A stretch of 64,000 nt of DNA from an uncultured virus (IMG/VR IMGVR_UViG_3300032212_000001) (IMGVR_UViG_3300032212_000001), one strand, 5' to 3'. Positions 2,032 to 63,700 are shown, numbered from the stretch's first letter. Translations and numbers: made by a program. Notes: generated from the letters alone by a model not told the origin.

Positions 2032-3285
2032 ATGCAAGACATTCCAACAACACGACCCCTGGAACTCAGTAACTTGAGCGACAAGCAGCGCAAAATCCGC
2101 GACAGCTTCAGAGGATCAAAGAGCCAAATTAAGATCCTTGAAGAACTGCGCCAGGGCAAGCAGCCCAAAGAGGGGCGAAGCCTCAAGTCTCTCATCGACA
2201 AAGGGATTGTCTGCCGGAATGAGGATGGTGAAATTCTGGAAAACGCTTTCTGGGCCGAGTTCGATCTGCTCATGGACACCAAGGCGCGCCAACAGCTCGT
2301 CATGCTCTACGACAACGCACCCAAGAGAAAGAATCCTGAGCGCACCCGCCCGCACCAGGACGACCCATTCATAGTCTCCTGTGGCGTCGGCGTTGACAGC
2401 GTAGCTATCCTTGTCGGCCTTGCAAAACTCTACAAGGAAACGGGCAACAGGAAGTTCCGGCCAGACGCCATCCAATTCGCCGACACCCAAGCTGAGAAAC
2501 CCATCACCTACCAATACATCCCTATACTCAATAAATGGCTTCGCCGCCAGGGTTTCCCCTCCCTAACCGTCGTTACCCAAGTGTTCCCCAAGAGCACATA
2601 CACGAGCCCATACGAGAAGATGATCCACAACGAGACCATGCCGTCACCCGCTCTCGGTGGTGGTCACTCCTGCTCACTGTCTTGGAAGGTCGAGCCCATG
2701 AACCGCTGGTGCTCTGGCTACAAAGAGAAACACGCCAAGGCGCGGCTAACAGACGAGCAGCGCGAGGCCAAGGGCGCGTCTGGAACGTGTATGCAGGGCT
2801 GGGAAGGTGGCTGGACTCCCGCTTACCGTTGCTGGGAGCGTGGCGGCAAAGTCCTGAAGGCAATCGGCTACAACGCTGACGAGGCTCATCGTAACTGGTC
2901 TAAGACAGACGACGAGAGCTACCGCTACTGGTATCCCCTCTTAGAGTGGCAATGGGACCGTGAGCGCTGCGAGAAGGAGATCGGAAACGCCGGACTGCCG
3001 GTCCCTCAAAAGTCAGCGTGTTTCTTCTGCCCAGCCAACAAGCCAGAGGAGGTCCGGCTACTCGCCCGTGACTACCCTGAGCTTTTCGAGCAAGCTTTGC
3101 TCATGGAGCGCACAGCCCGCGACGGGAAGCACGGATTTGACACGACCCTGGGGCTTGGCCGAACGTTCTCCTGGGAAGAGGTCGCTTATGACGGTGGGCC
3201 TGTGGCCGAGAGCTTTGGATCGTCGTGCGAAAAGGAATTTACAGGCATTGGAGTTCAAGCTGGACTCTTCAGCTTTGTAGTCTGA
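2032..3285 (+). CDS. PAPS-reductase-like PP-loop (adenine nucleotide alpha hydrolase) protein
   Basis: SCGVGVDS PP-loop, FADTxAE, CSxxWK, IGYNADE, YPLLEW, P.KSACFFCP; start after RBS at 2017. Confidence 0.75.
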   Translation: MQDIPTTRPLELSNLSDKQRKIRDSFRGSKSQIKILEELRQGKQPKEGRSLKSLIDKGIVCRNEDGEILENAFWAEFDLLMDTKARQQLVMLYDNAPKRKNPERTRPHQDDPFIVSCGVGVDSVAILVGLAKLYKETGNRKFRPDAIQFADTQAEKPITYQYIPILNKWLRRQGFPSLTVVTQVFPKSTYTSPYEKMIHNETMPSPALGGGHSCSLSWKVEPMNRWCSGYKEKHAKARLTDEQREAKGASGTCMQGWEGGWTPAYRCWERGGKVLKAIGYNADEAHRNWSKTDDESYRYWYPLLEWQWDRERCEKEIGNAGLPVPQKSACFFCPANKPEEVRLLARDYPELFEQALLMERTARDGKHGFDTTLGLGRTFSWEEVAYDGGPVAESFGSSCEKEFTGIGVQAGLFSFVV

Positions 3286-3301
3286 AAAGGGGAATCGTCT
3301 C

Positions 3302-3553
3302 ATGAGAAAAGCAAAGTTCTTAGTCCAAGTGAAGAAATACGATGGGATGGGAGCAAGGAATCCATACCGGAGGCGGCGAATGAGAATGACAGCCTTCAAG
3401 ACAGTTTCAAAGCACTCATCACTGAAGGAGGCCAAGGACGATTATTTCAAGAAACGCAAGAGGCCAGGGTTACATATGTTCCGTGTCACATACAAAGGAG
3501 AGGTCGTTGTAGACCCTCTTGGCCGCAACTACCCAATCGAAGAAGGGAAATAA
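3302..3553 (+). CDS. hypothetical basic protein
   Basis: tightly packed co-oriented ORF. Confidence 0.6.
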   Translation: MRKAKFLVQVKKYDGMGARNPYRRRRMRMTAFKTVSKHSSLKEAKDDYFKKRKRPGLHMFRVTYKGEVVVDPLGRNYPIEEGK

Positions 3554-3555
3554 AC

Positions 3556-3774
3556 ATGAATCAGTGCGAAGACTACCCCTGCTGTGGACACGAATCTGGA
3601 TGTTGCCCTGACTTTGACGAGTCAGGCAAGCAACTCAATATGAAGTGTGTGTGCGGCGCATCAGTGCCGCTAGACTCACCCACTTCACTTTGCCATGGGT
3701 GCCTCAACCAACCAACGATGGACGACGAATACTATGACTACGATGACGAATACCACATGGGAGAAGATTGCTAG
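3556..3774 (+). CDS. small Cys-rich protein (CEDYPCCGH...)
   Basis: Cys clusters, acidic tail, operon packing. Confidence 0.65.
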   Translation: MNQCEDYPCCGHESGCCPDFDESGKQLNMKCVCGASVPLDSPTSLCHGCLNQPTMDDEYYDYDDEYHMGEDC

Positions 3775-3787
3775 GAAAACGTTTTCC
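3774..3787. promoter_or_regulatory. 14-bp palindrome GGAAAACGTTTTCC (representative of 23 dispersed copies)
   Basis: perfect copies at 3774, 8295, 9812, 15483, 17968, 46009; 17 further copies with 1-2 mismatches. Confidence 0.8.
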
Positions 3788-4954: not shown

Positions 4955-4990
4955 ACAAGGAAAACGCTTTCCGAGACAAGGAGACGGTCA

Positions 4991-7840: not shown

Positions 7841-8295
7841 GAGATTCTCCAATCGTGGAGCCCAAGAACAGCTTCGACGCATTGACAACATATTTGGCTC
7901 AGAGAGACATTGAACGGGATTATTGGAAGAAATCCTACAAGACCGTTTCCGAGTCTGGAGAGAGCCACATAACAATGCCTCTTGGCAAAAATACAGCCCT
8001 AAAGGCTCTTCCTCACGTCCTCGAATGGAGATTACTATTTGACGAGTATGACATCCCAGTCAAACTCGAAATTCATGGCGGCAATGTCCATTTCAAGTTC
8101 AAAAATCACAACGACGCTGAATATGCCTTCCTTATCCTTCACGAAGAACCACACAAGGCACTGACTGAAGAACAATTGAAGGAGTCTGAAGGATTGAAGC
8201 AGACAAACATGTGGAAATGGTTGCCCTTTATTGGACTGTCCTTCGTTGGTCTATTCGCAGAAATCAGCCGCAAGAAAAAGATCCTTAAGAACTAG
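7837..8295 (+). CDS. hypothetical protein with C-terminal hydrophobic segment
   Basis: GGAGG RBS, GTGA coupling. Confidence 0.6.
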   Translation: MRDSPIVEPKNSFDALTTYLAQRDIERDYWKKSYKTVSESGESHITMPLGKNTALKALPHVLEWRLLFDEYDIPVKLEIHGGNVHFKFKNHNDAEYAFLILHEEPHKALTEEQLKESEGLKQTNMWKWLPFIGLSFVGLFAEISRKKKILKN

Positions 8296-8324
8296 GAAAA
8301 CGTTTTCCCGAAAGGAAGAAATTA

Positions 8325-9762: not shown

Positions 9763-9865
9763 TAACGTCCTAGAAGGCTTGAGTCTCAAGCCAACTGATT
9801 CATGACGCGGTGGAAAACGTTTTCCACCGACTTAAAGTATTCATTCCAAAAGGGGTCAACTGAAA

Positions 9866-11075: not shown

Positions 11076-12042
11076 CCCAACGGCAACTGAAGTATGGAAA
11101 ACCTTCCAGGCCGAGGACTGGGCCTGGAAGGTTCGCGTCTCCAACAAAGGCAACATTCAAAGAATGGATTCTGGTCACTGGATTGACCTTGAGATAAGAA
11201 CCTTTCACAAAAAACATCTCAAGGTCTATATCAAAAGTAAGGGAAAAGACAAACTCGGACAACATTGGTATCACGCGATTAGCATATCAAGCCTTGTCGC
11301 CAAACTATTCCTCACTAACCGAGATGGTAGGTCAGCCGTATCATACAAGGACGGCGACCGAACAAACTGCGCCGCTCACAATCTAGCATGGTCCTATCAC
11401 GCTGAGTTTTTTGAGCCCAAACACAACTACCGCATGAGACGAGAACTATCAAGTGCGGGAATTGGCATACTCAGAGCCATTGAATACAGCGGATCAGCCG
11501 GAGTAAGCTTTGTATCCATGGCTCTTCTTAAAAGACTTCAACATGCGGCAACGGAAGCCAATCCAGAAATTCCAAAGAAATCAGAAAATCCACAGCGCCA
11601 AAAAGTCGTGAAACTACTTGAGTTTGTTAGTGGATTAACTGGAGAACCCATAAGCGATCTCATATCGCAAGACAGTCTTTATGGGCTTCCTACATACGAC
11701 GACTACTTCTCTTGCGCTCAGGAGAGCCTGGAAGATCTTATAGGGGGCGCTGAAAACATTGAAGAAGAAAGCCTAGTCCCCGAAATGGCCGAAGAGAATG
11801 AAAGGAAGGAGCTTGTCCATAAAGCTCTTTCAAAACTGCCTCTGCGTCACGCCCTTGCTATCAAAATGCACTTTGGCCTTAAACCATTTGAGGCCAGATA
11901 CAACTACATGGAGTGTGCTCAACAATTCAACATATCAAGAGAGGGGTTCCGCCAAAGACTCGAAGCGGCTTACATTAAATTCAGGAAAGCACTTGGGGAA
12001 TTAAACGAGGGGATGAAGACAGCGCAAAACGTTTTCCAATAA
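11068..12042 (+). CDS. NUMOD4/HNH-like domain fused to sigma70 region 4
   Basis: EVWK...VSNKGNI, LVAKLFL...YKDGDRTNC..NLAW; ALSKLP.R...I.MHFGL...ECAQQFNISREGFRQ. Confidence 0.7.
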   Translation: MHNPTATEVWKTFQAEDWAWKVRVSNKGNIQRMDSGHWIDLEIRTFHKKHLKVYIKSKGKDKLGQHWYHAISISSLVAKLFLTNRDGRSAVSYKDGDRTNCAAHNLAWSYHAEFFEPKHNYRMRRELSSAGIGILRAIEYSGSAGVSFVSMALLKRLQHAATEANPEIPKKSENPQRQKVVKLLEFVSGLTGEPISDLISQDSLYGLPTYDDYFSCAQESLEDLIGGAENIEEESLVPEMAEENERKELVHKALSKLPLRHALAIKMHFGLKPFEARYNYMECAQQFNISREGFRQRLEAAYIKFRKALGELNEGMKTAQNVFQ

Positions 12043-14698: not shown

Positions 14699-15483
14699 AC
14701 ACCCAAGCACTATCGGACACATCGACTGAAGCCTTCATGAAAGGCAATCCCTTCTCCGACGCTTTTGTCAAGCAAGAATACGACTTCTACGGAGTCAGCG
14801 AGAATTATAAAAAGGACGGACTAAGAGTTATCCAGCAAAACGTCATCGGGCGCTGTGACGACTATCTAAACAAGAATTTCAGAGTCGGAATGAAAAGCCT
14901 CGCTCTAATCAAAGAGGGGGATGTTTGGATGTCTCTCACCCCCATGGAAATCGAATCGAACTACCTGCACATTTTCGAGGCAGAGGGTCAGGTTTTCACT
15001 GGTGGCCTTGGACTTGGATACTTCCCCCTTCGCGCAGCGGCCAAAGAGAGCGTTGAGAGCGTTGTTGTATACGAGACCGATAAAAGAGTCATAGACTTCT
15101 TCAAGAGCGCTCACAGCGCTCGCAAGGAGCTTGAGAAGATCGAAATCCGCGAGTCCTGTTGGAGAGAAGCTCTAAGATCGGGTGATATCGAATACCACGA
15201 CTACATTTACAGCGACATCTACCCTTACCTTTGCGATGACGATATTCTCGACGATATAAGGGAGTTTCACAGCTCGTTCCAATTCTTTCGATTCTGGGGA
15301 ATGGAAAAGGTGATTGTTTCGGCAGCAATGTCCTACGGGCACCAAAGCCACCTCCTATCAACATGGGGCAATCTTCGTCCTTACCTAAAGAAGTGGTTGG
15401 ACAACGAAGAGAAAACAAGCCTCTATTACCCGGCCCCTGACGAAGATTACTGTCTAGAAATTACAAAACTCCTCGAAATCTAG
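14695..15483 (+). CDS. spermidine-synthase-like class I SAM-dependent methyltransferase
   Basis: WMSLTPME, GGLGLGY, VVVYE.D..VI. Confidence 0.65.
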   Translation: MNTQALSDTSTEAFMKGNPFSDAFVKQEYDFYGVSENYKKDGLRVIQQNVIGRCDDYLNKNFRVGMKSLALIKEGDVWMSLTPMEIESNYLHIFEAEGQVFTGGLGLGYFPLRAAAKESVESVVVYETDKRVIDFFKSAHSARKELEKIEIRESCWREALRSGDIEYHDYIYSDIYPYLCDDDILDDIREFHSSFQFFRFWGMEKVIVSAAMSYGHQSHLLSTWGNLRPYLKKWLDNEEKTSLYYPAPDEDYCLEITKLLEI

Positions 15484-15496
15484 GAAAACGTTTTCC

Positions 15497-17936: not shown

Positions 17937-18008
17937 TCCATAACCGCTTCAACAATCCAAGGGGAGCGGAAAACGTTTTCCACAAAAAGAAATGACAAGG
18001 AGATCCCC

Positions 18009-18665
18009 ATGGGAATAGAAAAACCACCCCCGCGTAGAAAAACAAAAAAGTTCAAAGAAGCCTTTGGCAAATGGATTAAAAAGTCAATCGCAGAAGTCGA
18101 TATGAGCATTAAAGACCTCGCTATTGCAGTAGGAGTGAGTCGAACAACGGCATATAACTGGTCGATGGGGCGCAAGTCATTTATATCGGACAGCAATTAC
18201 GAGCTTGTTGAACTGGTCATCGAAAGAAGGGCCGAAAGGCGCGGTATCCAATACAACCATGAGGAGGGCAACGAGAAAGAATCCAATGAGGTATTTGTCG
18301 ATGAAGGACATGTTTCAATCAATGGTTCTCGATTTGAAGTCGCAATGAAGAACAGCTCCTTCTCCATCAGATCCTTTTGCAGAGCGGCTGGTATAGGAGA
18401 GAGAACCCTCTATCGCTGGAAAAGTTCTCAACCAATTCCTATCTATGCTCTATACGGATTAGCCCACATACTAAAAGTCAACCCGCAATGGCTCACCGGC
18501 CAAGATAACAATATCAACCTCATTAGAGAAAAAACCGAAGACCTAAATACCAGGGGGGCGGATCGACTAAAAGACGTAATGAAGAAATCCCTCGCGTCTT
18601 TCAAAACGCGCATGGCTTTTGCCATGGAGGATATTAAAAGCCTCGAAAAAACAATGGAGTTCTAG
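18009..18665 (+). CDS. tandem XRE-family HTH transcription regulator
   Basis: SIKDLAIAVGVSRTTAYNW and SIRSFCRAAGIGERTLYRW...LAHILKVNPQWL. Confidence 0.75.
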   Translation: MGIEKPPPRRKTKKFKEAFGKWIKKSIAEVDMSIKDLAIAVGVSRTTAYNWSMGRKSFISDSNYELVELVIERRAERRGIQYNHEEGNEKESNEVFVDEGHVSINGSRFEVAMKNSSFSIRSFCRAAGIGERTLYRWKSSQPIPIYALYGLAHILKVNPQWLTGQDNNINLIREKTEDLNTRGADRLKDVMKKSLASFKTRMAFAMEDIKSLEKTMEF

Positions 18666-21122: not shown

Positions 21123-21198
21123 AAAGCCAAGCTTCGTGGTCACTAGAAAACGTTTTCCGATACGAAAATCGGAATCAAACAAGACAAGGAGAGACATT

Positions 21199-23553: not shown

Positions 23554-24660
23554 ATGTCAGGTAGTATCGACGACCGTTATGCAGAAGCCCTAAGAGCCCT
23601 TCACTCCGATCCTGAGAATATCGAAACCATGGCTCGGTTAGCGTCCATGGGTGAACGTCTTGGCGGGAGCATGGCTCACGAAGTAGCAAAACATTTTGCA
23701 GAAAAAGGCTTCGATCCAGAGGACGCTGAAAAGTTTGCCATCGGGTATATGTTTCAGTCATTCCGTGCCTACATGGATCACCTCGAAAGAGAACAAATCC
23801 AGAAATGGTCAGAGATGGTTTGCCCCGCTCAAAACTCAGCAGACCTAATGTTTTTCCGTCAATTGCGCCAGAGGAGAACAGAGTCAAACCTCGACCAGAT
23901 GGGAGTCGTCGGAGTCTGGGAAGAAAAGATTTTCAAGAAGATCACAATAAAGCTTGAAGAAGGCTTTCACGAAAGCGTCTACAACGACTTCTGGAAGAAA
24001 ACATACTTCCGAATAATGATCCAAAAGGACGTGGCTCGCGAACTAAGATACCCCTCAAAGATTCTCAGCAAAAACATAAGATGCTTCAACCCTGGGAATC
24101 TAAGAGTAGGCGCGGGATTCGACATTGACTTCATTGCGTCTTTCTCTGAAAGTCTCTCCACTGATACTGATTTCACTGTTGGCGTTTGCATAGAATCAGC
24201 TACGAGGAAAGACATTCATGGAAATTCGGCGAGGCAAGTCAGAATGGGGGGCAATAATTCATACACTCCATTTCAAGAGGCTCTTCCAGAAAACGCTTTC
24301 CCAGAGCACTTGCAAGACTCCAACGGCATTGATGGTTATGAACAACCTGTTGATGAATGGATCGCCGAAAGTCAAGACGAGGGACATTTAACACAAGCGG
24401 CAACCTATTGCGATGCCGATGGCAACCCCTTGGATATCAACACTGTGCCAGAAGGGACACTTCTATACCTTCCCAATGACAACAATGATCCTCCTGCGCC
24501 TCTCGGCGTAAAAACGACCGACCCTACCCACGGATTCATTGGAGTCACTAATGGAGGAGTGACTCCACAAATGCATGGCATTTATGAAGTCATGGAATCA
24601 ACTGAAAACCAAATAACCATTGAAAATGAAAGCGAGGAAGAAAATGGCAGAGAAGAGTAA
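23554..24660 (+). CDS. hypothetical protein
   Basis: GAGG RBS; 368 aa; N-terminal motif similar to that of ORF 4520. Confidence 0.7.
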   Translation: MSGSIDDRYAEALRALHSDPENIETMARLASMGERLGGSMAHEVAKHFAEKGFDPEDAEKFAIGYMFQSFRAYMDHLEREQIQKWSEMVCPAQNSADLMFFRQLRQRRTESNLDQMGVVGVWEEKIFKKITIKLEEGFHESVYNDFWKKTYFRIMIQKDVARELRYPSKILSKNIRCFNPGNLRVGAGFDIDFIASFSESLSTDTDFTVGVCIESATRKDIHGNSARQVRMGGNNSYTPFQEALPENAFPEHLQDSNGIDGYEQPVDEWIAESQDEGHLTQAATYCDADGNPLDINTVPEGTLLYLPNDNNDPPAPLGVKTTDPTHGFIGVTNGGVTPQMHGIYEVMESTENQITIENESEEENGREE

Positions 24661-25090: not shown

Positions 25091-25663
25091 TTGAAAGAAA
25101 AGAAGGAGAGACTCGTGCTCTACCCTGATGAAATGATTCTGCTTTGTGACTTTGAAACAACTGGTCTTGCCCAGGAAGAGGGCTCAAAAGCGATTCAATT
25201 CGCCGGTCTCTTCCTTCGTCCTGACATGACTATCGAATCCGACTTCAACTATCATATCGACTACAGAGACCTTCAAGACCCTATACCCCTGAACCACATA
25301 CACGGGATCGACAAGAAAACGCTTTCCGAAAAGGGAATGTCCAAAAAGCAAGTCGTAGAGGCCATCCAGAAGAAGCTCATTGGTCTTCATAGAGACGGGG
25401 TGAGAAGGATCTATCTCTCAAGTGACAACAGCTTCTTCGACCAGACCTTTGCCTATAAGCTTGGTTTGATCGGTAAACACTTGCTTCACTACAACCCGCT
25501 TGACTTCAAATGCCTGTGTCGCATGGCTGGTGTGAAAAGACCTGAAAGGTTCAATAAAAAACACTGCGCCATGAACGACACTTTGAACTGGTACAGAAGT
25601 GTCCTGATTTCCTATGACCGACTTAAAATGGCTGTAGAAAAACGACGATTTGAAGCCTCCTAG
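25091..25663 (+). CDS. DEDDh 3'-5' exonuclease (DnaQ-like)
   Basis: DFETTGL, HGI, N..FD, H.AMND. Confidence 0.8.
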   Translation: MKEKKERLVLYPDEMILLCDFETTGLAQEEGSKAIQFAGLFLRPDMTIESDFNYHIDYRDLQDPIPLNHIHGIDKKTLSEKGMSKKQVVEAIQKKLIGLHRDGVRRIYLSSDNSFFDQTFAYKLGLIGKHLLHYNPLDFKCLCRMAGVKRPERFNKKHCAMNDTLNWYRSVLISYDRLKMAVEKRRFEAS

Positions 25664-38796: not shown

Positions 38797-38965
38797 CTTG
38801 GTAAACTCCAGTCTTTACAAGCGTTTTTTTGATTTGGTGGTTTGAGTTATGGTCGTTCGTTTCTTGGAAAACGTTTTCTCTTTTTTAACTAAGGGAGAAT
38901 AAAGCGAATGGTTTTATCAGTAAGTCTTTGCTACCCTGGGTCGAAACTGATTTCGGAGGACCAAG

Positions 38966-45170: not shown

Positions 45171-46964
45171 ATGGCTAAATTTAACGATCAGATTGACAAG
45201 GAAACTCAAGAGCAAGTGGAGAAGCTTGAAGTTTTCACCAAGGGCAAGGAAAACCTAGCCATTGAAGAAGTAAAATCACGAATGAGTGAAGCCTTTAATG
45301 AGAACGGTGGTCCAATACTTGAAGTCATTGAAAGCATTTTCAGGGACGAGGCAAAGGGCTACATAAAATTCCTAAAGGGAGTCATTAGAGATCATGAAAC
45401 ATCAGACTCTTACGAGAGGTTCAAGAACAAGCTTGGTTGGGATCTTCGCAAATTTCACAACACTAAAATAAGTGATTCACTTCGCTACGCAAAGAACAAG
45501 GCTTTTGATGAGAAGGTTACTTATCTTGACCGATATCAATGGGATGATTATCGCGGCGCTGTAGACTTATTCGAGATAGACGAAGAGAAGGTTGTCAGTG
45601 ATGCCCTTATTCATTATGAGAACACTCGTGACATGTTTATTTACAAGAACGTCTACAAGCTCGCCAGGGTTTTAGGTGACAGGACGGATCTCGACAAGCT
45701 TGATGTTGAAATAAAATACAGTCGCCAAGCTATTGAAGGTCACGTTTCAATTGAACTGCGTGACGGAACTTCGTTTGACATCAAGATTCAAGTCATTTAT
45801 GCGTGGAGAACTGAGCCTCGACGCACTTTCTATACCCAATACAGGGCAACGTTCCACAATATCCGCGTGGCTGGAAAGGACATCTCTGGCAATAGTCTGT
45901 TGGACGTTGGCATAGCCATGGGCTCTATTGACCCAAAGACCAAGCTGGCCGCTATTGATCGTGTTGAGAGTGGATTCAAGCTGGCAAAGGCAGAGCTTAA
46001 GGAAACGAGGAAAACGTTTTCCGATGAGCATGAATGGTGGAAGCGCTGGCTAGATATGACTCAAGACCGGAAGGAAGTCTATTATGGTTGGATGAGGAAT
46101 CCTCCGAAAAGCCTTGAGAATGTGAGCCATGGTGATTATCAATGGATTAAGAAACAGTCTGACAAGACCTTGAAAGACCTCAAAGCTAGGTCTTCCAATA
46201 TATCGAAGGCTTTCAAGAGGTTATTTTCAGTATTCGACGCTGGTGGTCGTTTTGAAGAATGGCTTTCTATAGGGACGATTCTCCCTCTAAACCCCCCTGT
46301 GACGTGGTATTCATCGAATCCTGAAATTCATCAGAATCGTTACTTAGAGGCTCTTCAGTATGATTACGGATGGCATGTAACAAACATTGATGGTCGTTGG
46401 GTTCCAGGGGCAAGTCGCTTTTTGCTGTTCCGATCTGATAATCTTTCTGGACCGTTTCGCATCGTTTCGTTCAAGAAGAGAGAAGACGCAAAGACGGCGG
46501 TTGTAAAATATGGCTTGGGGCGGGAGTTTAGCTCAGGTGTTTATATATGGGGGAGAGACGCAGAACACGCTAATTCCAAGGCTGAGAATCGTAAGTTTGA
46601 CAGAATAGACAATGTGCCTATTTCAGAAAGGGATAAGATTTCAAGTATTCAGAAGCTTCAATCAGAATCCGGCCCCCTCTTCTTTTGGTTTCTCACGTTG
46701 ATCGAAGATCTATATGTGGAGGAAGGCGAGAAGATTGAAATGAGAAGAGTAAAAGCGGCGGAAAAGGAATGGTGGGAGGAAACTGACGACTTCGGAGGTT
46801 TGAGATCTAGGCTCAAAGCAACGAAGCAGCCAAACATACTGCGCCTTGTTGAGTCAATGAAGCTTTGCGGCCTTCTCGACAATCTTTATCAATACACCCC
46901 CCTGGCTAGTGAATTAAAACGTTACGCGGGCGCTCTAAAAAAGACATCGAGCTATATTAGTTGA
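45171..46964 (+). CDS. large hypothetical multidomain protein
   Basis: 597-aa ORF. Confidence 0.75.
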   Translation: MAKFNDQIDKETQEQVEKLEVFTKGKENLAIEEVKSRMSEAFNENGGPILEVIESIFRDEAKGYIKFLKGVIRDHETSDSYERFKNKLGWDLRKFHNTKISDSLRYAKNKAFDEKVTYLDRYQWDDYRGAVDLFEIDEEKVVSDALIHYENTRDMFIYKNVYKLARVLGDRTDLDKLDVEIKYSRQAIEGHVSIELRDGTSFDIKIQVIYAWRTEPRRTFYTQYRATFHNIRVAGKDISGNSLLDVGIAMGSIDPKTKLAAIDRVESGFKLAKAELKETRKTFSDEHEWWKRWLDMTQDRKEVYYGWMRNPPKSLENVSHGDYQWIKKQSDKTLKDLKARSSNISKAFKRLFSVFDAGGRFEEWLSIGTILPLNPPVTWYSSNPEIHQNRYLEALQYDYGWHVTNIDGRWVPGASRFLLFRSDNLSGPFRIVSFKKREDAKTAVVKYGLGREFSSGVYIWGRDAEHANSKAENRKFDRIDNVPISERDKISSIQKLQSESGPLFFWFLTLIEDLYVEEGEKIEMRRVKAAEKEWWEETDDFGGLRSRLKATKQPNILRLVESMKLCGLLDNLYQYTPLASELKRYAGALKKTSSYIS

Positions 46965-47020: not shown

Positions 47021-47704
47021 ATGGATATTATTTACGGCTACGAGAGGGGCACGTTTAGGCTCCCTAAGACCGTTTACCAAAGAGTTAAGCGATCTGTTCG
47101 CAAAGAGTTCATGGCTCGTAGAGAGCTTTCTTATGAACTCGCTCTCGATTTATACAAGCAACTGATGAGCAAGAAAGGGCGAGGGGTTGACTACAAGGCT
47201 CTCTACGAGTCTATGGCGTCCAAGGAAGTCCCCATGACTTTTGAAGAGATTGCCAAGGCCACAGGCACGACAGACCCCTCTGAGTGGCCTTCAAACCTTC
47301 CAGGCCGGAAGAACATGACTCTAGATCCTCATAATTGGATTCGAGACTCATTGTTTCCAGAAATCAAGTCAGGCGAACAGCTTGAGCTTACTTCATCGAA
47401 CAAGAAACCTCGAAAACCGACTAAGAAAGCGTTTTCTCGGATAGATCCGGGTGATTTCATTAAGTTGTTCGACGGCGAAGTATGGATCATGTTTGACGAG
47501 GGCTCTACGGTCTACTGGAATTGTTGTCAGTTAAAGGATTGGGGCGGCTCTAGGCTAAGAGCTTTTTGTCGCAAAGACACTATTGTCAAAGCCTTCTTTG
47601 ACGGCATCGAAGGTGTTTCAAGGTGGGGCTCCAATGGCGGTGAGATCGTTGCTTGTGACGGTCAGTATGTCTTAAAAGGCTATGGGAAGGGTATCAATGC
47701 CTAG
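47021..47704 (+). CDS. hypothetical protein
   Basis: start after GACAAGGAGA. Confidence 0.7.
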   Translation: MDIIYGYERGTFRLPKTVYQRVKRSVRKEFMARRELSYELALDLYKQLMSKKGRGVDYKALYESMASKEVPMTFEEIAKATGTTDPSEWPSNLPGRKNMTLDPHNWIRDSLFPEIKSGEQLELTSSNKKPRKPTKKAFSRIDPGDFIKLFDGEVWIMFDEGSTVYWNCCQLKDWGGSRLRAFCRKDTIVKAFFDGIEGVSRWGSNGGEIVACDGQYVLKGYGKGINA

Positions 47705-50276: not shown

Positions 50277-50757
50277 TTCAATTTTAAGCGGAAACCGTTT
50301 TCCAGATAAGCCAGCGCATCAGTTTAAGACTGCCGGAGCTGGAGTGGCAAAGCAGCCCGTCGCTGCACAAAACGACTATTCGGGTCAGCCCAGGGAAGGT
50401 TCGCCTTTCAACTGTCATGAAGACAAGCTTCCTTGTATCACGACTCAGTGCCCTAAGTGGGTCGAGGTTGAAGGAGAGTCTCTTGAACAATACCCTTATG
50501 GGGGCTATTGTGTTTCAGCAAGCAAAGACGAAGCTGTCGAGGAACTTGCGAAAGACGCAAAGGAAACTCTCAATACGGTCGTCGAAATGTTCACAACTTA
50601 TGCACCGATTGTAAAAACTATGGTAGTAAGTTGGGTCCAGAAGGATATGATGAGCGGCAAAAGTGTTGTTGGAGGTTTTCTCGGTAGATTTACCGAAGGA
50701 AATGACGAAGAGAATGACAGCGAAACCGAGGAGGATAAACCAACCTTCGAGGTTTGA
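50269..50757 (+). CDS. hypothetical protein
   Basis: GGAG RBS, coupling. Confidence 0.65.
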   Translation: MADSILSGNRFPDKPAHQFKTAGAGVAKQPVAAQNDYSGQPREGSPFNCHEDKLPCITTQCPKWVEVEGESLEQYPYGGYCVSASKDEAVEELAKDAKETLNTVVEMFTTYAPIVKTMVVSWVQKDMMSGKSVVGGFLGRFTEGNDEENDSETEEDKPTFEV

Positions 50758-50769: not shown

Positions 50770-51729
50770 GTGCTTTTAGATAGGCGATTTGACGTTTCAT
50801 TGAAGATTGTTCCCCCAGGGAACCAAGCGATCTCACACACCCTTGGTCAGATGGTCGCCTATGCAAAAGACCCACAGACTCTAGTTGAAGCAAGACGCTA
50901 CGCGCTTTACATAACGAAAGGATCTAAATCTCGTTATGAACGTGTGAAGCGTCTTTTTTCTTGGGCTCGCAAAAATGTTGAATATGTCAACGATATACAC
51001 GGTATCGAGCACGTTCAAGATCCGGTCTTTATTCTTGAGAAAGCGTTTTCCAGAAACCCACAAGAGAAAGCCCTCTCGGCTGGTGATTGTGACTGCCATG
51101 CGGTCCTTCTCGCTGTCATGTGCATAAGCCTTGGTATTCCTGCTCGATACACGGTCACAGAGGACAAGAAGAACCCTGGTTCAGCGACAAGGCCGAATTG
51201 GGCTCATGTCCACGCGGAAGCGTTTGCTAATAACGAATGGATTCCAATGGATACTTCGATGTGGTTCGTTGACTACGACCGAAGAGTCCCTGGGCGTCGT
51301 TCTTATATCAAGATTCCCTTTGCTTCTGAGGCGGGGTCTGTTGGTGAAGAGCGCTTCATTCCTTTTGAGAAAAACAAGAATCTTGGTTGGGCTCAAGTGG
51401 TTACGGCTGGTATAAGGTCTGTTGCCGATATCACAAAGGCCCTTATCAATCAGGGTATTGCTAAGGACACTATTGAGGCCCAGGAGCTTGCTCTGAGGCT
51501 TAAGTCTGAAGTTCAGGAGCGTTATCTTACAACAAAGGCAGAACTTGATGCTGAGATCGTGAAGCTTGCTCTCGAAATGAAGAATCGCGATAAATTGGAA
51601 AGAGAATCTGCTGAAAAGTTTCGCAAAAAGAGTCTAACAGATACTATAGTGACTGTGACATTGGCCCTTGGCGCTTTGGGCGCGATTATGTTTTCGGAGG
51701 AGATTAAAAAATTATGGACTACGGAATGA
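50770..51729 (+). CDS. transglutaminase-like cysteine protease with C-terminal TM anchor
   Basis: Y.ND..G.E.VQ.P, GDCDCHAVLLA...LG.PAR, HVHAE, WIPMD (Cys-His-Asp triad). Confidence 0.8.
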   Translation: MLLDRRFDVSLKIVPPGNQAISHTLGQMVAYAKDPQTLVEARRYALYITKGSKSRYERVKRLFSWARKNVEYVNDIHGIEHVQDPVFILEKAFSRNPQEKALSAGDCDCHAVLLAVMCISLGIPARYTVTEDKKNPGSATRPNWAHVHAEAFANNEWIPMDTSMWFVDYDRRVPGRRSYIKIPFASEAGSVGEERFIPFEKNKNLGWAQVVTAGIRSVADITKALINQGIAKDTIEAQELALRLKSEVQERYLTTKAELDAEIVKLALEMKNRDKLERESAEKFRKKSLTDTIVTVTLALGALGAIMFSEEIKKLWTTE

Positions 51730-54076: not shown

Positions 54077-57000
54077 TTGAGGAGCGCAAACGTGCTATTC
54101 GGACGACAACGGAATCCCGCAGCCACGACTTTGGCGAGGGGCGGGGCTGGTTGGGCTCCGAGACATTCAGACCAACGGAGAACCACGTCTTCCCTTGGTG
54201 AAGCTCAGGCTGATGAAATTGGGAGTGTGATAAGCTTCACCAAGGAAAGCGTTTTCCAAACCCTTCGCAAGATAGCGACCGATTATCCTTGTGACTCTCC
54301 GTTTTATGTCGATGAATACGACGGAAGCTACAATGTCAAGCCAGACGCTTCCCCTTCGATTCATAGCTTAGTGTCAGCTATCAGAGCCGGTTCTGTCCCA
54401 GTGTCTTTTCTTGAGGACATTGTGAGAGATCCTGACATGACACGTATGCATGGCATTGTCGATTTCGCCAGGGATATGCTTCTTGCGGCAAACAAGAGCC
54501 TACAGGGCTTCGGAGTGGCTCTGAGTGAGCGTCCTGTAGGAAGTGATATTTCGGATCTCTACAACCGGATTATGAGGACAGGTTTCTCTTCAAGATCGAC
54601 GGTGAGGCGAACCATACTTTTAGGTCGGGTTGGAGAGGATAACTTCTCTTATGATCTAACGCCTAAAGTGCCGTCTCCTTATGGAGCAATCGTCATTGGA
54701 GATTCTTCAACGGATTCTGATTTCTTTAGTAAAGCTTCGGCATTGTTCCCAGGTGGCCCTAAGATTGGCACCATCGCTAAGTATGCAAAAACGATTGAAT
54801 ACCACTCCGATGTCAACGGCAAGATCATTGTCAAGAAGGCCGAGAAAGACAAGGATTCAGGTCAGTTCTTTGTTCGGAGGATTTGGCAGAAGTGGTCGAA
54901 TGTCCCAGCGACACACTACATTGATAAAATTCGATTCGATCAGTATTTGAACACCTTCGCGCCCGCCAAAAATGTGACAGGGACTCCAGACGAGATTGAG
55001 GCGAAGCGAATAGAGACCGTTGATAATAGGCTCTCTCAGTCTCCCACAGGATTGTCTGTCAATCTTTGGTATGGAATGACTGCTCCTGCGACACAGGTGG
55101 AATGGGAAAGAGCAAAGGTCGCTCGCGCCCAAATCGCTGGTTCTCCAGTCAACTATCCTGTCGATATCATCGAAGAGCTTAACACGATCCCATTTGGCAC
55201 GAACTATAAGAATATCGACGCTCAAGAGAAAACAGCCGTCTCCTACAATGGTGTTGCCCAATCTCCAAAGAATCGCTTGCGCGTGAACTTCGAGGCTTCA
55301 AATTGGACGAATCCAGGCCCATGGAACGAAATAAAGCCGATTGACGTTGTGATTGCCTTGGAATCACTCAGCCCAGATGAGATTGATCGACTCGAACGTT
55401 ACTTCGACTGGAATCATGACGGATCGACGCAGCCATATGTGCCCTCTCCCGGTGGTTTCAATATTCAGATAGACTTTGGTTCGTCATTCAATTCGTGGGC
55501 TCAATCGATGAACGATTCCCACGCCCGGAAGAGAAAAGGTCAAGCAGACAGGTATAGCTTGGCCTTTATGCTTGAGACAATATTCAACCTTACATTTGAG
55601 CCGAAGAAGGCTCTTCTTGCAGGTGATCTTGCAAGGCAAATCGAAATAGAGCAACCAGGGATCGACGAGTCCGATTTACGCATGAATTGGAAGGACATGG
55701 TTAATTGGGTCAGGGATAACAAGAAACTGCCTTACATCATGGCTCGGGCCAAAGATCCTTATGCTGACAAACGAATCGAAAATATTGTTGAGATAAGGGA
55801 GAAGGACAAGACAGAGGAAGAAAAGAGCATTAATTACAAGGTCAATGCTTTGTTTCTTTGGGAGGAAGAAAAGCCTACGGGTCTTGCGAAAAACATCACG
55901 ATTGGCTTGATGAGGGTCGGAGTTCACATTGGCCTTGGAAGGATCGCTTCGGCCAGGGCGCTTTTTGGTCAAATTCGTGAATTTGTTTGTTCTCAAAAGC
56001 TGGCGGGCAACACTCTTTCGGATGGTGAAATTGTCGAGATTGATCGGCTGCTAGAGAACGCCGGTCATTTTGCAAAGAACGGTGTTTTACCGCCGCCAAA
56101 GCCAGTGTCAGCCGATGCAACTCTGGCCTTGGAAGAGCTTGCAAACCGTGTGACGAAAATCGATGCGAGTGAATACATGAGTATGCGCTCAGAAGAGCTT
56201 GCGGTCGCGGCTGACGATTTGAAGAAGGGTAAGTTCACTGAAGAGGACGCGCCTGAGCTTGCTTTGAAGGCTTTGAACGAAGAACGAAAGCTTGATCTAG
56301 AAATTGAAAACTCACGGAAAGAAGTCGAAGCAGCGGAGTTTGAGAAGGAAAAGCTCGAAGAGAAGAAGATCTTGACGCAAGATCGTTTGCACAAGGCTTT
56401 GAAGGGCGATAATGGTCAACTCGATGGTTGGCTGAGTGATAGCCTGAAAAGCGTCGAGCGTAAATTCCGTCATGAGATGAAGCGTGTTGCCAGGAGCGTT
56501 GATAGAACGTTCAGCAGTCTCACTGAAGAGGCTATGGAAGTTCTTGAGCCAAAGAGTGTCTTCGGATTTTTCAAAGACGTTTACGGCGATATTGAAGACG
56601 AGGCGAAGCGGTTTAGTCGTCGTGTCGAGAATGAAACACAGCGCTTTGGTCGGCAAATTGAAAAGGGAGGTAAGAGCTTCGGTCGGCGCTTTGACAAAAA
56701 CCTTCAGAGAGTCGTAAAGTCGATTGCTCAGAACGCTGTGTGGATCAATGCCGTCGCTGGCGTTTTGTGGTATATCCCGGTGATTGGCTGGATTATAAAT
56801 CTCGTAGTCATGTCAATCGTGGCTGTCGCTGAAATCGTTTTTACTTACAAAATGAAGACAGCTATCAAAGGTCAGTTGAAGGACGCTCTTAAGATTCTTC
56901 GTCAACAGATTGCGAAGTTAAACGCGGAAATCGCTGACTTGGAGAGACAAGCTGAAGAGGCAGAGGCCCAGCGTAAAGTTGTGAGGGCTCTTGCCGAAGA

Positions 57001-57763: not shown

Positions 57764-57927
57764 TTCTTTTACACACAGAGCCCGTGTTTATTGACAATGG
57801 CTCTCATTACCTCGACGCAGTGAGTCATGAGTCTTGCGTTGTTATGGTAGGCTGTCCCGTTGAATTTGACCCTCTGCTATTAGAGTCCAGGGAAAACGCT
57901 TTCCTTGGATAAGACAAGGAGAATGAC

Positions 57928-59240: not shown

Positions 59241-60704
59241 GTGCATAACCGTGACGAAAGGAAGTATCGTATCGTGAGCGCAATTTGTCACGTCTGGGAC
59301 GAGAATAAAATGTCTCGATCTCTTCCAAAGATACCCTTTGGAAAGCAAACTCAATCGGCATTTTACATACACAAAACGGTCAAAGAAGACCTTCCTGTCT
59401 TTATTCAAAGGCTCATAGAAAAAGCTGAGAGGAAAGCGTTTTCCCAGATAGGTTTTTACAATGTCATCAAGGTTCATAAGTATGAACCCAGGATATCTTT
59501 TCTTGCCTATCCGAATTTTGATAAGGACGAAACTCCTTCATTGAAACGCTCTGTTGTCGTAAACTTTAGAACCGGCAAGGTTGCGGAGTGGTCCTATGGT
59601 GAACATTCAGAACCACCAATCTTGCACAAGAAACAACTTCTCTTGCAAGGTGAAGCTATGAGAAATCCAACAACAGCCATTGCCAGGAGCGAAAGCTCTA
59701 TGCCCTTCCGTGTCGCCGTCGATAAGAAATTAGTAAGCGCCCCCGCTCTTGACTGGGGTTGCGGAAAGGGCGCTGATGTGCGCTCTCTTAGAGACATGGG
59801 CATTATGACGGCTTGTTACGATCCTGCTTATGCGCCGCGTCTTCCAAAGAAGAAGGGCTTCTATAGCTACGGCCACGCTATCTACGTTGTAAACACGATA
59901 GAAGACTCAAGTGAAAGAACGAGGACTTTGAAAAGATTTCGGAGTCACTTGAAGAAAGGGGCCTCCTGGTTGGTCGCGGTAAGGAGTCGAAGCGCGATAG
60001 AACGGGCTGCGGAAGAGAGCGGTTGGCGTAAACACAAAGACGGTTATCTCACTGGCTCGGGAACATTTCAAAAAGGATACAGCAAAAAAGGTCTCGCGTC
60101 TCTTCTGGCTAAGGTCGGATTCAGTGACTTTGACACCTACAAACAAGGCGATTCGATAATCGCTCATACCCCTGTTAAGAAAAGAAACCCAAGACGAGTT
60201 GAAGTCTCCAATGCTCAACAACGGGAGGCCGGTTCTTCAAGGTCGGTAGAGGTCGAAGAGGTCTTGCCCGAATATGATTGGGCCTTCTTTAGTTCTGACG
60301 ATGATTCTGAAGAGGAAGAGTTGATAAGGAACCCATTGGTTTTAGCTGGAAATCCTAAAAGCACGAAGCGTCTTAATTGTGAACGGATCGAGAGATTCGT
60401 TGAAGAGTGTGTTGGTTGGCTTATTGATGTCCAGGGTATGATTCAGGACGAATCCGGCACCGATATGGCCGAAGTGAATCGGCTCGTTCGATCAGCGAGA
60501 GACACTTTGAGTTCTTCTGTGCCTGATTGCGATGAAAACTTGGAAGTTTTTCATCGGGCCTATCATACGGCTTGTCGAAAAATCGAGAGGGCTATTCGTC
60601 TTGAAAGAGGCGAGTTCCGTGGTCATAAGTCTTTCAAGGCTCTTCGAGAGATCTCAACGGAGATTCATCGTTTCGATAAGTGGATGCATGAACTCCAAAG
60701 TTGA
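59241..60704 (+). CDS. protein resembling the DNA-phosphorothioation-associated putative methyltransferase (TIGR04096-like)
   Basis: ISFLAYPNFD.D..PSL..S....PPILHKK; TAIARS..S.P...LDWGCGKG.DV..L....YDP; YVVNTIED..ER..TL; GTFQK; start may be 59310. Confidence 0.7.
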   Translation: MHNRDERKYRIVSAICHVWDENKMSRSLPKIPFGKQTQSAFYIHKTVKEDLPVFIQRLIEKAERKAFSQIGFYNVIKVHKYEPRISFLAYPNFDKDETPSLKRSVVVNFRTGKVAEWSYGEHSEPPILHKKQLLLQGEAMRNPTTAIARSESSMPFRVAVDKKLVSAPALDWGCGKGADVRSLRDMGIMTACYDPAYAPRLPKKKGFYSYGHAIYVVNTIEDSSERTRTLKRFRSHLKKGASWLVAVRSRSAIERAAEESGWRKHKDGYLTGSGTFQKGYSKKGLASLLAKVGFSDFDTYKQGDSIIAHTPVKKRNPRRVEVSNAQQREAGSSRSVEVEEVLPEYDWAFFSSDDDSEEEELIRNPLVLAGNPKSTKRLNCERIERFVEECVGWLIDVQGMIQDESGTDMAEVNRLVRSARDTLSSSVPDCDENLEVFHRAYHTACRKIERAIRLERGEFRGHKSFKALREISTEIHRFDKWMHELQS

Positions 60705-60716
60705 AGAGGTTCGATC

Positions 60717-63700
60717 ATGGAAGTGAAGTCTGTCGGGAACGTGCGATGTCCAGAAACAGAGCGCGACATTAAGATACATACACCAGCCTCCTGGCCTAAG
60801 ACGGTTCGAGCTTTTGTAGAAGAGTCATTGACCAAGAAAATTCTTGAAGGTTGTCCAGAGACTCAGAGCAGAGTTATTAAAAACCCTGCTGGGCGGCGCA
60901 GGAACCCCGTCAACGTGTCGATCATTACTGACAGGAAGAAAGTCATAGACGCTTTCTTGAAGGGCTCCAAGGAGCTTCATGAGGCCCTGGAGTCTTATGA
61001 GCCGTCGAGGAGTGTGAAGAAAGTCGAGACCATTCTTCAAAAAGCGATTCAGCAAGGGAATCTTGAAAGGCGTGGGTACGAAGTCAAGAAGAAGACTAAG
61101 ACCATAGGAAACGCTAAGTATTTTAGCTTTGCTATCCAGTCTCATGATAGTTCTTTCTTCTGGCTCACCCAGGAAGCGACGAAGGCCGAGAAAAGTGATG
61201 AGGATCACTTGAAAGAACTCAGTGACATACTGAGATACTGGTCTATGCAGAGAAAACTCTCGGGAAATCTTCCGTATCAAGTCAATGAGAAAATAGGAGA
61301 GATTGAGCGCTATTACAGGACTACGAAAAGGGAAGAAATCAAATATTTCATGGATTTCCTTCCGCCCGCTCCAGACTTAACCGATTATCACATCATCGCT
61401 GTCAACACGAGCGCCGGTAAAGACTCCCAGGCAATGATGGATTATGTCGTTGAGCTTGCGAAAGAAGTCGGTGTCATGGATCGCCTGATTTCGGTCCATG
61501 CCGATCTTGGAGAGCTTGAATGGGAGGGGACCAAAGAACTGGCTCTTGACCATACAAAGCACTACAACATGCCTTTTTACACTGTCCAGAGAGACCGGGA
61601 TCTTCTGCATCAGATCGAGCACGAAAGGGAAGACTTCCCTGGTCAGAGTGCCCGATTCTGCACAAGCGAACACAAGACGAGTCAGGTTCAAAAGCTCTAC
61701 ACCCGTTTCTCCGATAAGAAGCTTGCTGACTACTTGACGGATCTTTTGGATCTCGAAGTGGAGAAATGGATTAAGGATTGGCGCGAAGCGGGAAAGAACG
61801 CCAAGGCTGATAAAGCCGCCCTTTGGTTTGAAGGTAAAGATCGCATTACGGCTTTGCGTATGGAACAGGTCGATTTTTCAGAGGGTGAGCTGTCTGTCAA
61901 GGATACTGAAAGGCTTCGCGAATTAAGAGCCGAGGTAGACAAAGAGGCTCTTCGCTTTTTCAACAAGAGCGACTGGAGCAAGATTCGCAAAAGTGCTAAG
62001 GACAAGCTTCCAAGGATGCGTGTTCTTTCATGCTTGGGAATCAGAGCCCTGGAGGGTCATGAGAGGGCTCGCAAGAATCCCTTTGAAACGATTGAAGACA
62101 TCGGTATTCGCCAGACAGAACGCTGGTTTCCTATTTTCCGATGGACTGAAGCTGATGTTTGGAATCGCATTGACAATATGGAAACGCGCTATGCGACTCC
62201 CTACGACCTTGGAATGAGTCGATTGTCTTGTGCCTTCTGTGTCTTCGCAACACTCGATGATTTATTGATTTCTGCGGAACACAATCCAGAGCTACTCGAT
62301 AAGTATGTGGGCTTGGAGGAGCGGCTCGCGGAGAAGCATAAAAAGATGACCTTGAAGAAGCAGGTCTCGGCTGGTGAGAAAGCTTACAAAAAAGCCAAGG
62401 CGAAGGGTCTTTCTGAGAAAGAGGCAGAAGAGTCAAGAGTTTCGGCGATGAAGAACGTTCCGATGCCTCAGTTTAAGACGGATCTTTCAATCAAGGAAGT
62501 GAAGGAGAAGTTCAAAGAGGGCGAGCGCGGTCGTAAGTGGTCGCGTGGGAAGAGAAGGCTTCAAGTCGTTGCTTCAGAGCCACCACCGATCCCCGAGAGC
62601 CTTCAGAAGTTCCCCGAAAAGGTTGTCCACGAGGAACAGGCGGAAGTGGATTTATCATGTGCCCCTGACAAAAATGGTGAAAACCTGCGTGTTGGTGATA
62701 AGGTCACAACTTTGATAGCCGGGGTCAAAGACACAAAAAAAAAGCCTCTAGAGTTTTACGAGTTCGAGATAAAGAGGATCTTCCCTGGGAAGACGGGGCC
62801 ACAGGTCAAACTTTTTTGTTTGGATGCCCCTTCAAAGAACATGACGCTGGCAAGTAATTCGGTGTCAAAGATCAAAGTCCTTGAAGAGACGATAAGCAGC
62901 GGTGAGGTTGATAGCGTGGGCAAAAGCGATTGGTCTATAAAGAAAGACGGCAAGAGTTACACGTTGAGCCGTCCCGAGGGTGTTGTTGCCCCTGATATCC
63001 GATTCAAGAAAGCAGCGCTTTTTCTGTCTGAACAGCTTCAATCATTAGAGATGGACTGGTCTGACTTTCCTTCTAATCCGAGAAGGAAGAAAGAAAAGGC
63101 CCTGGCTCTCATACATCGCGTTCGCCGGGTTCGCGATATCTCTGATATCGACACTATTTTAAGTGATATTGAAAGCGAGAAACCTTCAAGCGAAGCTGAG
63201 ACTCTTAAATTCAAAGTGTCTCCGTCGCTTGTTGAATACATCGACCACTTGGTTCTGGATAGGTATATCGACAAGGATGGCGAGCGATATGACATTGATT
63301 CCGAACAGGAATACCAAGCAGCGGTTTTCCTTCGTGATCGCCTGTATGACGGCGTTCTCGAATTGCCCGCCTATGGCGATGTTCTGGAGTCTGTCTATCA
63401 AATCATTCTCGATTCTCTGAACAGTGATGACGAAGACGGCACGGCACATATCGGTCGAGCTTCACGTTCATTTGACAGCTTGTCTAAAAAGCTCCTGGCT
63501 GCTCAGAGAAAATATAAGGACAAGAAGTATTTCTCAAAGAAGAAAGAGAAAACGTTTTCCATGAGAAGTGATAATGATGCCTTCGTCGGCGGTTCTGTTT
63601 GGAAGCCCAGCGAAGTTCTGGATAGTGTTGGTTTTATACTTGCCGACAAGCAAGGCGTCTTGACGATGATTGCGAAGTCTTCTGGAGGCTTCCTTGTTGG

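Follow-up and report, generated by a model that had tools for sequence, protein, structure and literature searches.

A dispersed array of 14-bp palindromes and a ParB-like candidate reader in a novel tailed phage-like virus

A 64,000-nt stretch (the window) of the 124,372-bp contig IMGVR_UViG_3300032212_000001, from an uncultured virus, carries 23 dispersed copies of a 14-bp palindrome with the consensus GGAAAACGTTTTCC, together with the gene for an orphan protein of the ParB/KorB/Noc type (to be referred to as the ParB-like protein). The 14-mers very probably serve as binding sites in the DNA (operators) for a phage-encoded protein that acts as a dimer with two-fold symmetry. We tentatively take the ParB-like protein as their most likely reader, and the best fit to the arrangement, by analogy, is a regulatory or marking network resembling that of KorB and its OB sites. 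All counts of sites and open reading frames (ORFs) given here refer to the window.

An original prediction, made from the sequence alone, had proposed a ParB/KorB-like system that serves both as centromere and as regulon. The array of sites at the DNA level, the ParB fold of the protein and the presence of a site at an operator position are retained from this proposal, while its centromere half is not.

The palindromes as DNA sites

Six copies in the window match GGAAAACGTTTTCC exactly (starts 3774, 8295, 9812, 15483, 17968 and 46009), compared to 0.00 expected. Among 100 dinucleotide-preserving shuffles, none contains an exact copy. With up to two mismatches, 22 copies are found, whereas shuffled sequences contain 0.54 on average and 3 at most. 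The degenerate form RGAAARCGYTTTCY has 21 matches, compared to 0.02 expected. The copy at 47424 has three mismatches to GGAAAACGTTTTCC, yet fits RGAAARCGYTTTCY, and the copies at 12024 and 50290 fall outside RGAAARCGYTTTCY by one transversion each. All 23 starts listed in the original prediction are correct (Table 1), its six perfect copies are present, and the array is far beyond chance.

The variation among the copies is symmetric. Positions 3-5, 7-8 and 10-13 are identical in all 23 copies, and transitions at two pairs of mirrored positions account for 21 of the 23 deviations from the consensus, with six G-to-A and four C-to-T changes at 1/14, and five A-to-G and six T-to-C changes at 6/9. 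Among the 46 half-sites there are 26 of GGAAAAC, 8 of GGAAAGC, 7 of AGAAAAC, 3 of AGAAAGC, and one each of GCAAAAC and GGAAACC. Sites with two, one and no perfect halves number 6, 14 and 3, respectively, compared to 7.3, 11.3 and 4.3 expected under independence, indicating that the two halves vary independently. No position is conserved within eight bases on either side of the 14-mer. The unit is therefore the bare 14-mer, and not a piece of a longer repeat.

The sites are spaced more evenly than expected for random placement. The mean spacing is 2,787 bp, with a coefficient of variation of 0.62, compared to 0.96 for random placement (P=0.009, 20,000 simulations), and the longest gaps between sites are 6.6 and 7.1 kb. 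The array does not have the features of repeats of the repetitive extragenic palindromic (REP) or miniature inverted-repeat transposable element (MITE) type, as there is no conservation beyond the 14-mer and ten copies are deep in genes. A search of a sequence collection finds the exact 14-mer in at least 123 stretches. The best 80 of these are single, chance-like matches, except for two contigs with two copies each. None of these resembles the window, and three of those records, searched whole, have one copy each.

The ORF list covers 93.6% of the window, with 6.4% non-coding. Eight of the 23 copies are located in this non-coding portion, wholly or in all but one base (3774, 4959, 8295, 9812, 15483, 17968, 29575 and 38866; binomial P=6e-5). 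Three of them start with the G of a TAG stop codon, and the leader GACAAGGAG directly follows the copy at 4959, in agreement with the earlier description of copies at stop codons and before leaders. The copy at 21145 is also intergenic if the ATG at 21199, which is supported by a Shine-Dalgarno (SD) sequence, is the true start. About half of the sites are at gene boundaries, just upstream of ribosome-binding sites, and nine or ten are 0-41 nt upstream of start codons. Among the exact copies, five of the six are at gene boundaries in the early block (1-25.6 kb).

A site is found within 100 nt upstream of 11 of the approximately 93 genes. Three of the four well-supported genes for DNA-binding proteins have such a site (post hoc hypergeometric P=0.005), namely the ribbon-helix-helix gene at 8325, the double helix-turn-helix (HTH) gene at 18009 and the ParB-like gene, while the fourth, the HNH/sigma-region-4 gene at 11068, has none within this distance.

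Other copies are found within genes. Thirteen had been placed inside coding sequences in different frames, and this is about right, with ten deep in genes, two in the last 6-9 codons and one in codons 8-12. The 14-mers inside ORFs use all three codon phases and are translated as, for example, ENAF, KTFS, KAFS and KRFP. As had been argued earlier, protein coding does not explain the 14-mers.

Table 1. Coordinates of the palindromic sites, the ParB-like gene and its promoter, and the two candidate rival readers
Feature	Position	Strand	Description
Site GGAAAACGCTTTCT	2238..2251		deep in PAPS-reductase-like gene 1978-3285
Exact site	3774..3787		first G completes TAG stop of ORF 3556-3774
Site	4959..4972		4 nt past stop of 4520-4954, 18 nt before ATG 4991; GACAAGGAG leader directly after
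Exact site	8295..8308		overlaps TAG stop of 7837-8295; 16 nt before ribbon-helix-helix gene 8325-8585
Ribbon-helix-helix (CopG-type) protein, 86 aa	8325..8585	+	PF01402 E 9.8e-6, 25.8 bits vs 20.5 cut-off
Exact site	9812..9825		intergenic; 22-bp extended palindrome; 40 nt before PEGA-domain gene 9866
Site GCAAAACGTTTTCC	12024..12037		last 6 codons of HNH/sigma-region-4 gene 11068-12042
Exact site	15483..15496		fills entire gap from stop of 14695-15483 to ATG 15497
Exact site	17968..17981		intergenic; 27 nt before double-HTH regulator gene 18009-18665
Two-HTH protein, 218 aa, rival candidate reader	18009..18665	+	two HTH motifs
Site	21145..21158		22 nt past stop of 20745-21122; 40 nt before SD-supported ATG 21199
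Site	24288..24301		deep in gene 23554-24660
Site	25314..25327		deep in exonuclease-like gene 25091-25663
Orphan ParB/KorB/Noc-like protein, 545 aa	27896..29533	-	lysine-rich N-terminal tail, ParB N-domain, HTH, unmatched C-terminal part
Site, 18-bp extended palindrome	29575..29588		between -10 box and SD of ParB-like gene
Sigma-70-like promoter of ParB-like gene (TTGACA, 18 nt, TATAAC)	29589..29632	-	read from sequence
Site	30107..30120		last codons of gene 30093-30416(-); 91 nt upstream of start of 29686-30015(-)
Site	32256..32269		deep in gene 31751-32683(-)
Site	38866..38879		intergenic; 69 nt past helicase gene 36919-38796, 86 nt before 38966
Exact site	46009..46022		deep in 597-aa gene 45171-46964
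Site AGAAAGCGTTTTCT (3 mismatches)	47424..47437		inside gene 46961-47704
Site GGAAACCGTTTTCC	50290..50303		13 nt past stop of 48594-50276; codons 8-12 of 50269-50757
Site	51038..51051		inside transglutaminase-like gene 50770-51729
Site	54244..54257		inside 1097-aa gene 54077-57370
Site, imperfectly extended symmetry	57891..57904		23 nt before GTG 57928; covered only by doubtful 50-codon ORF
Site	59431..59444		inside methyltransferase-domain gene 59241-60704
Site	63547..63560		inside large PAPS-reductase-domain gene 60717-64000 (open at window end)

The location of many copies exactly at gene junctions in the early region could indicate a target or by-product of DNA transactions. The 14-mer might be a 'linker' for recombination where modules join, a substrate of the serine recombinase or the HNH nuclease, or a sequence recognised by a DNA-modification enzyme of the phage. 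The window does encode a serine recombinase, an HNH/sigma-region-4 protein, three methyltransferase-like and two phosphoadenosine phosphosulfate (PAPS)-reductase-like proteins, a deoxycytidine triphosphate (dCTP) deaminase and a thymidylate-synthase-like fusion. We nonetheless consider this explanation extremely unlikely. The ten intragenic copies, in all phases, are not junctions, and a genome with 23 active sites of recombination or double-strand cleavage would be broken up. Sequences recognised for modification are, as a rule, short and without enrichment, and the conserved flanks of mobile repeats are missing here.

A role in RNA has also been considered, with the 14-mer forming a hairpin for termination or processing, or for a translational repressor beside the ribosome-binding sites. 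The nine or ten sites shortly before start codons are consistent with such a role, as are extended stems of -9.7 to -13.8 kcal/mol in three of the 11 copies that were folded with 6-nt flanks (9812, 29575 and 57891). However, the other eight have energies of -0.5 to -6.4 kcal/mol, no different from shuffles, and in two of these weak copies the predicted fold differs from the hairpin of the motif itself. The variants break base pairs without compensation, for example with A1 opposite C14, and the ten copies deep in genes are far from any start. A T-run is absent after most sites, and scans of the window give no matches in Rfam and no tRNA. An RNA role is thus a most improbable explanation of the array.

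Scans for sigma-70 promoters remain at the level of shuffles, with 15, 20 and 20 found, compared to means of 18.1, 18.5 and 19.6. In three cases the gaps from the site to the start codon are 0, 16 and 18 nt, which is too short for a promoter. For these two reasons the 14-mer is not part of a recognisable promoter.

Since the copies use all codon phases, have no conserved flanks and form mostly weak hairpins, the 14-mers appear to act at the DNA level. Together with the symmetric variation, these properties make them look like the DNA sites of a symmetric dimer.

Terminator-like hairpins as a class are commoner than in shuffles at 20001-60000 of the window (34 compared to 22.2, standard deviation 4.5, and 38 compared to 20.2, standard deviation 4.0). 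They are not tied to the 14-mer.

The ParB-like protein and its promoter

The ParB-like protein begins with a charged, lysine-rich region (residues 1-160), in which residues 112-144 comprise four KKAEKA(KPA) repeats. The original prediction had noted these KKAEKAKPA repeats, and all four copies are real. The tail suggests added non-specific DNA binding or compaction.

For the region after this tail, an AlphaFold2 model has a mean predicted local distance difference test (pLDDT) score of 79.7. A Foldseek search with the model finds ParB, KorB and Noc structures. Among the matches listed, all 29 with E≤0.001 belong to these three proteins, with a best E of 4e-6 and alignments of 222-252 columns. 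The KorB chains aligned are 8qa9 and 8qa8, and the Noc structures 7ol9, 6y93 and 7nfu are also present. The weaker matches are isolated DNA-binding domains, from KorB (1r71), ParB (6s6h), Noc (6y93) and SopB (3mkw).

Profile matches are found to Thermus Spo0J (E 2e-29, covering the N-domain and the HTH), Myxococcus ParB (~1e-26), Noc (~3e-21) and KorB (6e-10). In addition, phrog_1033 (ParB-like partition protein) matches with E 6.3e-8. The Pfam ParB_N model has no match to the protein. The profile alignment contains the ParB-like protein and 15 distant homologues (21-28% identity), with the numbering of a 386-residue fragment. Gly63 and Arg66 of the GxxR motif and Asn135 and Arg138 of the NxxR motif are invariant in this alignment. 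The putative nucleotide box has the sequence EGRQRIIN at the position where ParB has GERRxRA, with the third arginine and the alanine missing. The C-terminal 80 residues have pLDDT scores of 61-71 and are without homologues in the alignment. Judged from the structural model, the protein has a true ParB/KorB/Noc fold, with an N-terminal domain of the ParB/Srx type (the nucleotide-binding domain of this family) and a ParB-type HTH domain, and the ParB-like identity that had been proposed for it is borne out by the Foldseek, profile and phrog_1033 matches.

No ParA/CbiA-type gene is found among the 112 window ORFs scanned with Pfam and PHROG. The ParA-binding motif, defined in PMC12704722 as [LFI]G[KR]G[LFI], has no match in the ParB-like protein when used as a regular expression. 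The reading of the array as a centromere is therefore unsupported.

A function as an activator of thymine dioxygenases was considered and rejected. No Tet/JBP-type domain is found among the scanned ORFs, and the ParB subclass that activates these enzymes is without a DNA-binding domain, according to PMC13229309.

In the promoter region of the ParB-like gene, TTGACA and TATAAC are 18 nt apart, and the extended palindrome of 18 bp comes 9 nt after TATAAC. It is followed at a distance of 24 nt by GACAAGGAG and, 6 nt further on, by the ATG at 29533. The extended copy is thus positioned between the promoter and the start of the gene, as had been described. A protein bound at 29575 would sit at the start of the ParB transcript.

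An inverted repeat, AAAAAAAAGTGTCAAG ... CTTGACACTTTTTTT, is located just upstream of this promoter (29625-29672), and its right arm holds the -35 box. It could be a bidirectional terminator or another operator.

A second palindrome, TATACCATTGGTATA, is present in four exact copies in the window (8803-8817, 23512-23526, 30457-30471 and 46983-46997). All four are intergenic and overlap -10-like boxes (TATAAT, TATAAC or TATAAA), with TGG in the extended -10 position, and two of them extend to ~27 bp. A half-degenerate copy at ~29601-29617 forms the -10 region of the ParB promoter. Each copy is 31-776 bp from a 14-mer (P ~0.035, simulation). This palindrome is probably the operator of a different regulator at phage promoters.

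The ribosome-binding leaders of the window are unusually long and uniform. The word ACAAGGAG, mostly as TGACAAGGAGAGA, occurs in 18 copies, each 5-9 nt before a start codon, for example at 618, 2018, 4976, 14166, 17995, 21184, 29547(-), 47006 and 57914. This leader may reflect more than base pairing with 16S rRNA.

Candidate readers of the sites

In the mechanism that we propose, each palindrome would be contacted by the HTH domains of a dimer of the ParB-like protein. The analogy to KorB of the plasmid RK2 suggests that the dimer would then close as a nucleotide-dependent clamp and slide into the flanking DNA. As described in PMC11790492, KorB loads at the OB palindromes and forms a cytidine triphosphate (CTP)-dependent clamp that can slide along the DNA for up to 1.5 kb, and KorA locks it at promoters (further KorB/OB literature is found in PMC13584720 and PMC13768133). 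One site per ~2.8 kb would bring the whole phage chromosome within reach of such a protein; on this lattice each base would, on average, be no more than ~1.4 kb from a loading site. Three outcomes would be expected. Control of transcription or read-through is proposed at gene boundaries because about half of the sites are located there, just upstream of ribosome-binding sites. Autoregulation of the ParB-like gene is proposed because a site lies between its -10 box and SD. Finally, the phage DNA may be marked or compacted, aided by the lysine-rich repeat tail.

The closest known system for comparison is KorB/OB of the IncP-1 plasmid RK2. Both systems have a ParB-family protein with an N-domain and an HTH, and a short perfect palindrome (13-14 bp) in many dispersed copies, near to as well as far from promoters. 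A site is found at the protein's own promoter here too. The window has the layout of such a network, with 23 dispersed palindromes, one of them between the -10 box and the SD of the ParB-like gene and ten deep in genes. On the other hand, the replicon here is a phage of ~124 kb and not a plasmid, and no ParA (IncC) or KorA/TrbA-type partner is found in the window. There are ~23 sites per 64 kb here, compared to 12 on RK2, and many of them are intragenic and evenly spaced. Moreover, the window protein has the added lysine-rich repeat tail.

Similarities are also observed with Noc, whose ~14-bp binding sites (NBS) are scattered over the Bacillus subtilis chromosome. Noc is an orphan ParB paralogue without ParA, and its 14-bp palindrome has a central CG-type core and is distributed over the replicon, mostly within genes. 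Noc tethers DNA to the membrane via an N-terminal amphipathic helix and blocks division. In comparison, the window protein has a long charged tail, and its candidate sites are enriched at gene boundaries.

The linear plasmid-prophage N15 has a few dispersed centromere sites of the SopB/sopC type and a SopA partner. It is a phage genome in which palindromes bound by a ParB-family protein are dispersed among the genes, with effects on expression, and the present virus would resemble it in this. It differs from it in that there are 23 sites per 64 kb here, with no ParA in the window and no ParA-binding motif in the protein. We tentatively rate the array as a KorB/OB- or Noc/NBS-type network placed in a phage.

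Several observations weigh against the ParB-like protein as the reader. The GxxRxxA box is kept only in part (GRQRIIN), and the Pfam HTH_ParB model (PF17762) matches with E 2.4e-4 and 21.6 bits, just below the gathering cut-off of 22.6. The ribbon-helix-helix and double-HTH genes each have a perfect site 16-27 nt upstream, and the argument from its own promoter is therefore not unique to the ParB-like protein. The ~60 kb of the contig outside the window may encode another reader or a ParA, and the core of the motif matches the LacI/CcpA operator pattern.

The distribution of the protein and of the array is to be counted on the same side. The ParB-like protein finds only itself in IMG/VR, in INPHARED and in a word search of 5.8 billion proteins, and its next match in a HMMER scan of 1.84 billion representatives has an E of 3.5e-6. 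A 560-residue protein and the ribbon-helix-helix and double-HTH proteins have no close relatives in IMG/VR, and the 597-residue protein finds only itself. By these searches, the phage has no sequenced relatives. Three phage records with distant ParB homologues (25-28% identity) have no array; Burkholderia phage KS9 and Klebsiella ST405-OXA48phi1.2 were covered whole, and the Staphylococcus phage record over a stretch of 40.7 kb. A ParB-HTH gene alone therefore does not predict the lattice.

Dispersed ParB-type palindromes do occur, since the ParAB-bearing record ON073792.1 carries four copies of a 16-bp palindrome, GTTCAGACGTCTGAAC, with a central ACGT, one of them inside parB. These copies start at 3727, 15525, 31876 and 38138. 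Gene for gene, this record, deposited as a cyanophage, is a plasmid-like replicon that encodes Rep, ParA and ParB as well as polysaccharide genes.

The 14-mers could instead be operators of another dimeric regulator of the phage, which would block transcription genome-wide in the manner of stoperators, bound both within genes and at many of their boundaries, and for which the ParB-like gene would be merely a target. We consider this somewhat unlikely. The candidates are the ribbon-helix-helix protein, the double-HTH protein, or a product of the ~60 kb outside the window, which make up about half of the contig. The perfect sites are 16 nt before the ribbon-helix-helix gene and 27 nt before the double-HTH gene, and either could be autoregulated. 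However, two tandem HTH motifs in a monomer are a poor match to a site with two-fold symmetry. For the ribbon-helix-helix protein, the twelve base pairs taken as invariant are more than one dimer usually contacts and fewer than a tetramer needs.

In Cluster A mycobacteriophages, stoperators are asymmetric, are oriented with transcription and are bound by an HTH immunity repressor (L5 gp71). The literature on stoperators includes PMC6550527. They have in common with the present sites a number of two to three dozen, a length of 13-14 bp, and a frequent location in short intergenic gaps or across stop and start codons; many of the 14-mers overlap stop codons or fill such gaps. The 14-mers differ from them in being palindromic and free of orientation, with symmetric degeneracy. 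Their even spacing through structural genes is, in addition, atypical of classical repressors.

The original prediction had named a LacI-type operator as an alternative. Here, a host regulator of the LacI/GalR family (CcpA-like, for example) would couple phage expression to host physiology, with roadblocks inside genes included. The motif does fit GnAAnCGnTTnC, the conserved core of LacI-family operators, with the variable positions 6 and 9 corresponding to the 'n' beside the central CG. It also shares with the cre sites of CcpA a length of 14 bp, the palindromic symmetry, the invariant central CG, the AA/TT at positions 4-5/10-11 and the G/C at positions 2/13, as well as tolerance at 6/9. The outer base is different, however. 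The T of the TG...CA consensus is found in none of the 46 half-sites, which have G in 36 cases and A in 10. Full-text matches to the 10-12-letter core include CcpA/cre papers (PMC8359418, PMC3510511, PMC10989752 and PMC6090898). No LacI-family domain is found among the 112 window ORFs scanned, and it is difficult to see why a metabolic regulator would need 23 evenly spaced sites. Therefore, of this alternative the core pattern stands, while the outer bases and the gene content make it a very unlikely one.

A more elaborate form of the network with the ParB-like protein as reader would use two operators, in the style of KorB and KorA. The ParB-like protein would load at the 14-mers and slide, and a small phage regulator would capture it at the TATACCATTGGTATA promoters, with the lysine tail compacting or marking 'self' DNA. 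We regard this arrangement as quite improbable.

According to PMC12704722, orphan ParBs are common in phages and have no assigned role. Full-text searches of open-access papers and bioRxiv gave no description of a phage-wide palindrome lattice tied to ParB. If the ParB-like protein does read the sites, a phage without signs of plasmid-type partition would address its whole chromosome via regular private docking sites, and long-range silencing by the KorB sliding clamp would extend from one plasmid family to viruses. It would also suggest a function for the many orphan phage ParBs catalogued without a role (PMC12704722), and provide a compact protein/site pair for studying how a virus tells its own DNA from that of the host.

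The virus and its other genes

The virus is a novel one that resembles tailed phages. Its 8.8-kb structural region has no megablast match among 50,697 phage records, and the last 40 bases of the window match nothing among viral or metagenome contigs. A single sequencing run of DNA, from a microbial-mat metagenome that is probably its source, contains the window sequence, and no RNA run is listed. Matches in PHROG and Pfam identify a primase-polymerase, SNF2 and DEAD helicases, the dCTP deaminase, the thymidylate-synthase-like fusion, a phrog_6247 protein, the two PAPS-reductase-like proteins, methyltransferases, the serine recombinase and a Ser/Thr kinase.

The fusion protein (12684-14042, 452 residues) has an MtrA-like N-terminal part, a methanogen-type thymidylate-synthase-like domain and a pterin-binding DUF4346 domain. 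Its match to TIGR03283 has an E of 9.6e-43 and is below the cut-off of the model. Together with the dCTP deaminase (19067-19639), the sequence of this protein suggests a modified pyrimidine in the phage DNA.

The two PAPS-reductase-like proteins (phrog_424) are encoded at 1978-3285 and 60717-64000, the second having more than 1,090 residues and being cut by the end of the window. The three methyltransferase-like genes are located at 14695-15483, 17050-17748 and 59241-60704. The phrog_6247 protein (6161-7063) has 45-51% identity to proteins of 84 phage records. These genes point to a rich repertoire of DNA modification.

The kinase (25660-26805, minus strand) is of the eukaryotic Ser/Thr type (PF00069, E 4e-48) with a C-terminal DUF5754. 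Its gene follows the ParB-like gene at a distance of ~1 kb, with two small ORFs in between. The AT skew on the coding strand is strong at 1-24000 (+0.16 to +0.25), and is approximately zero or below in the minus-strand block.

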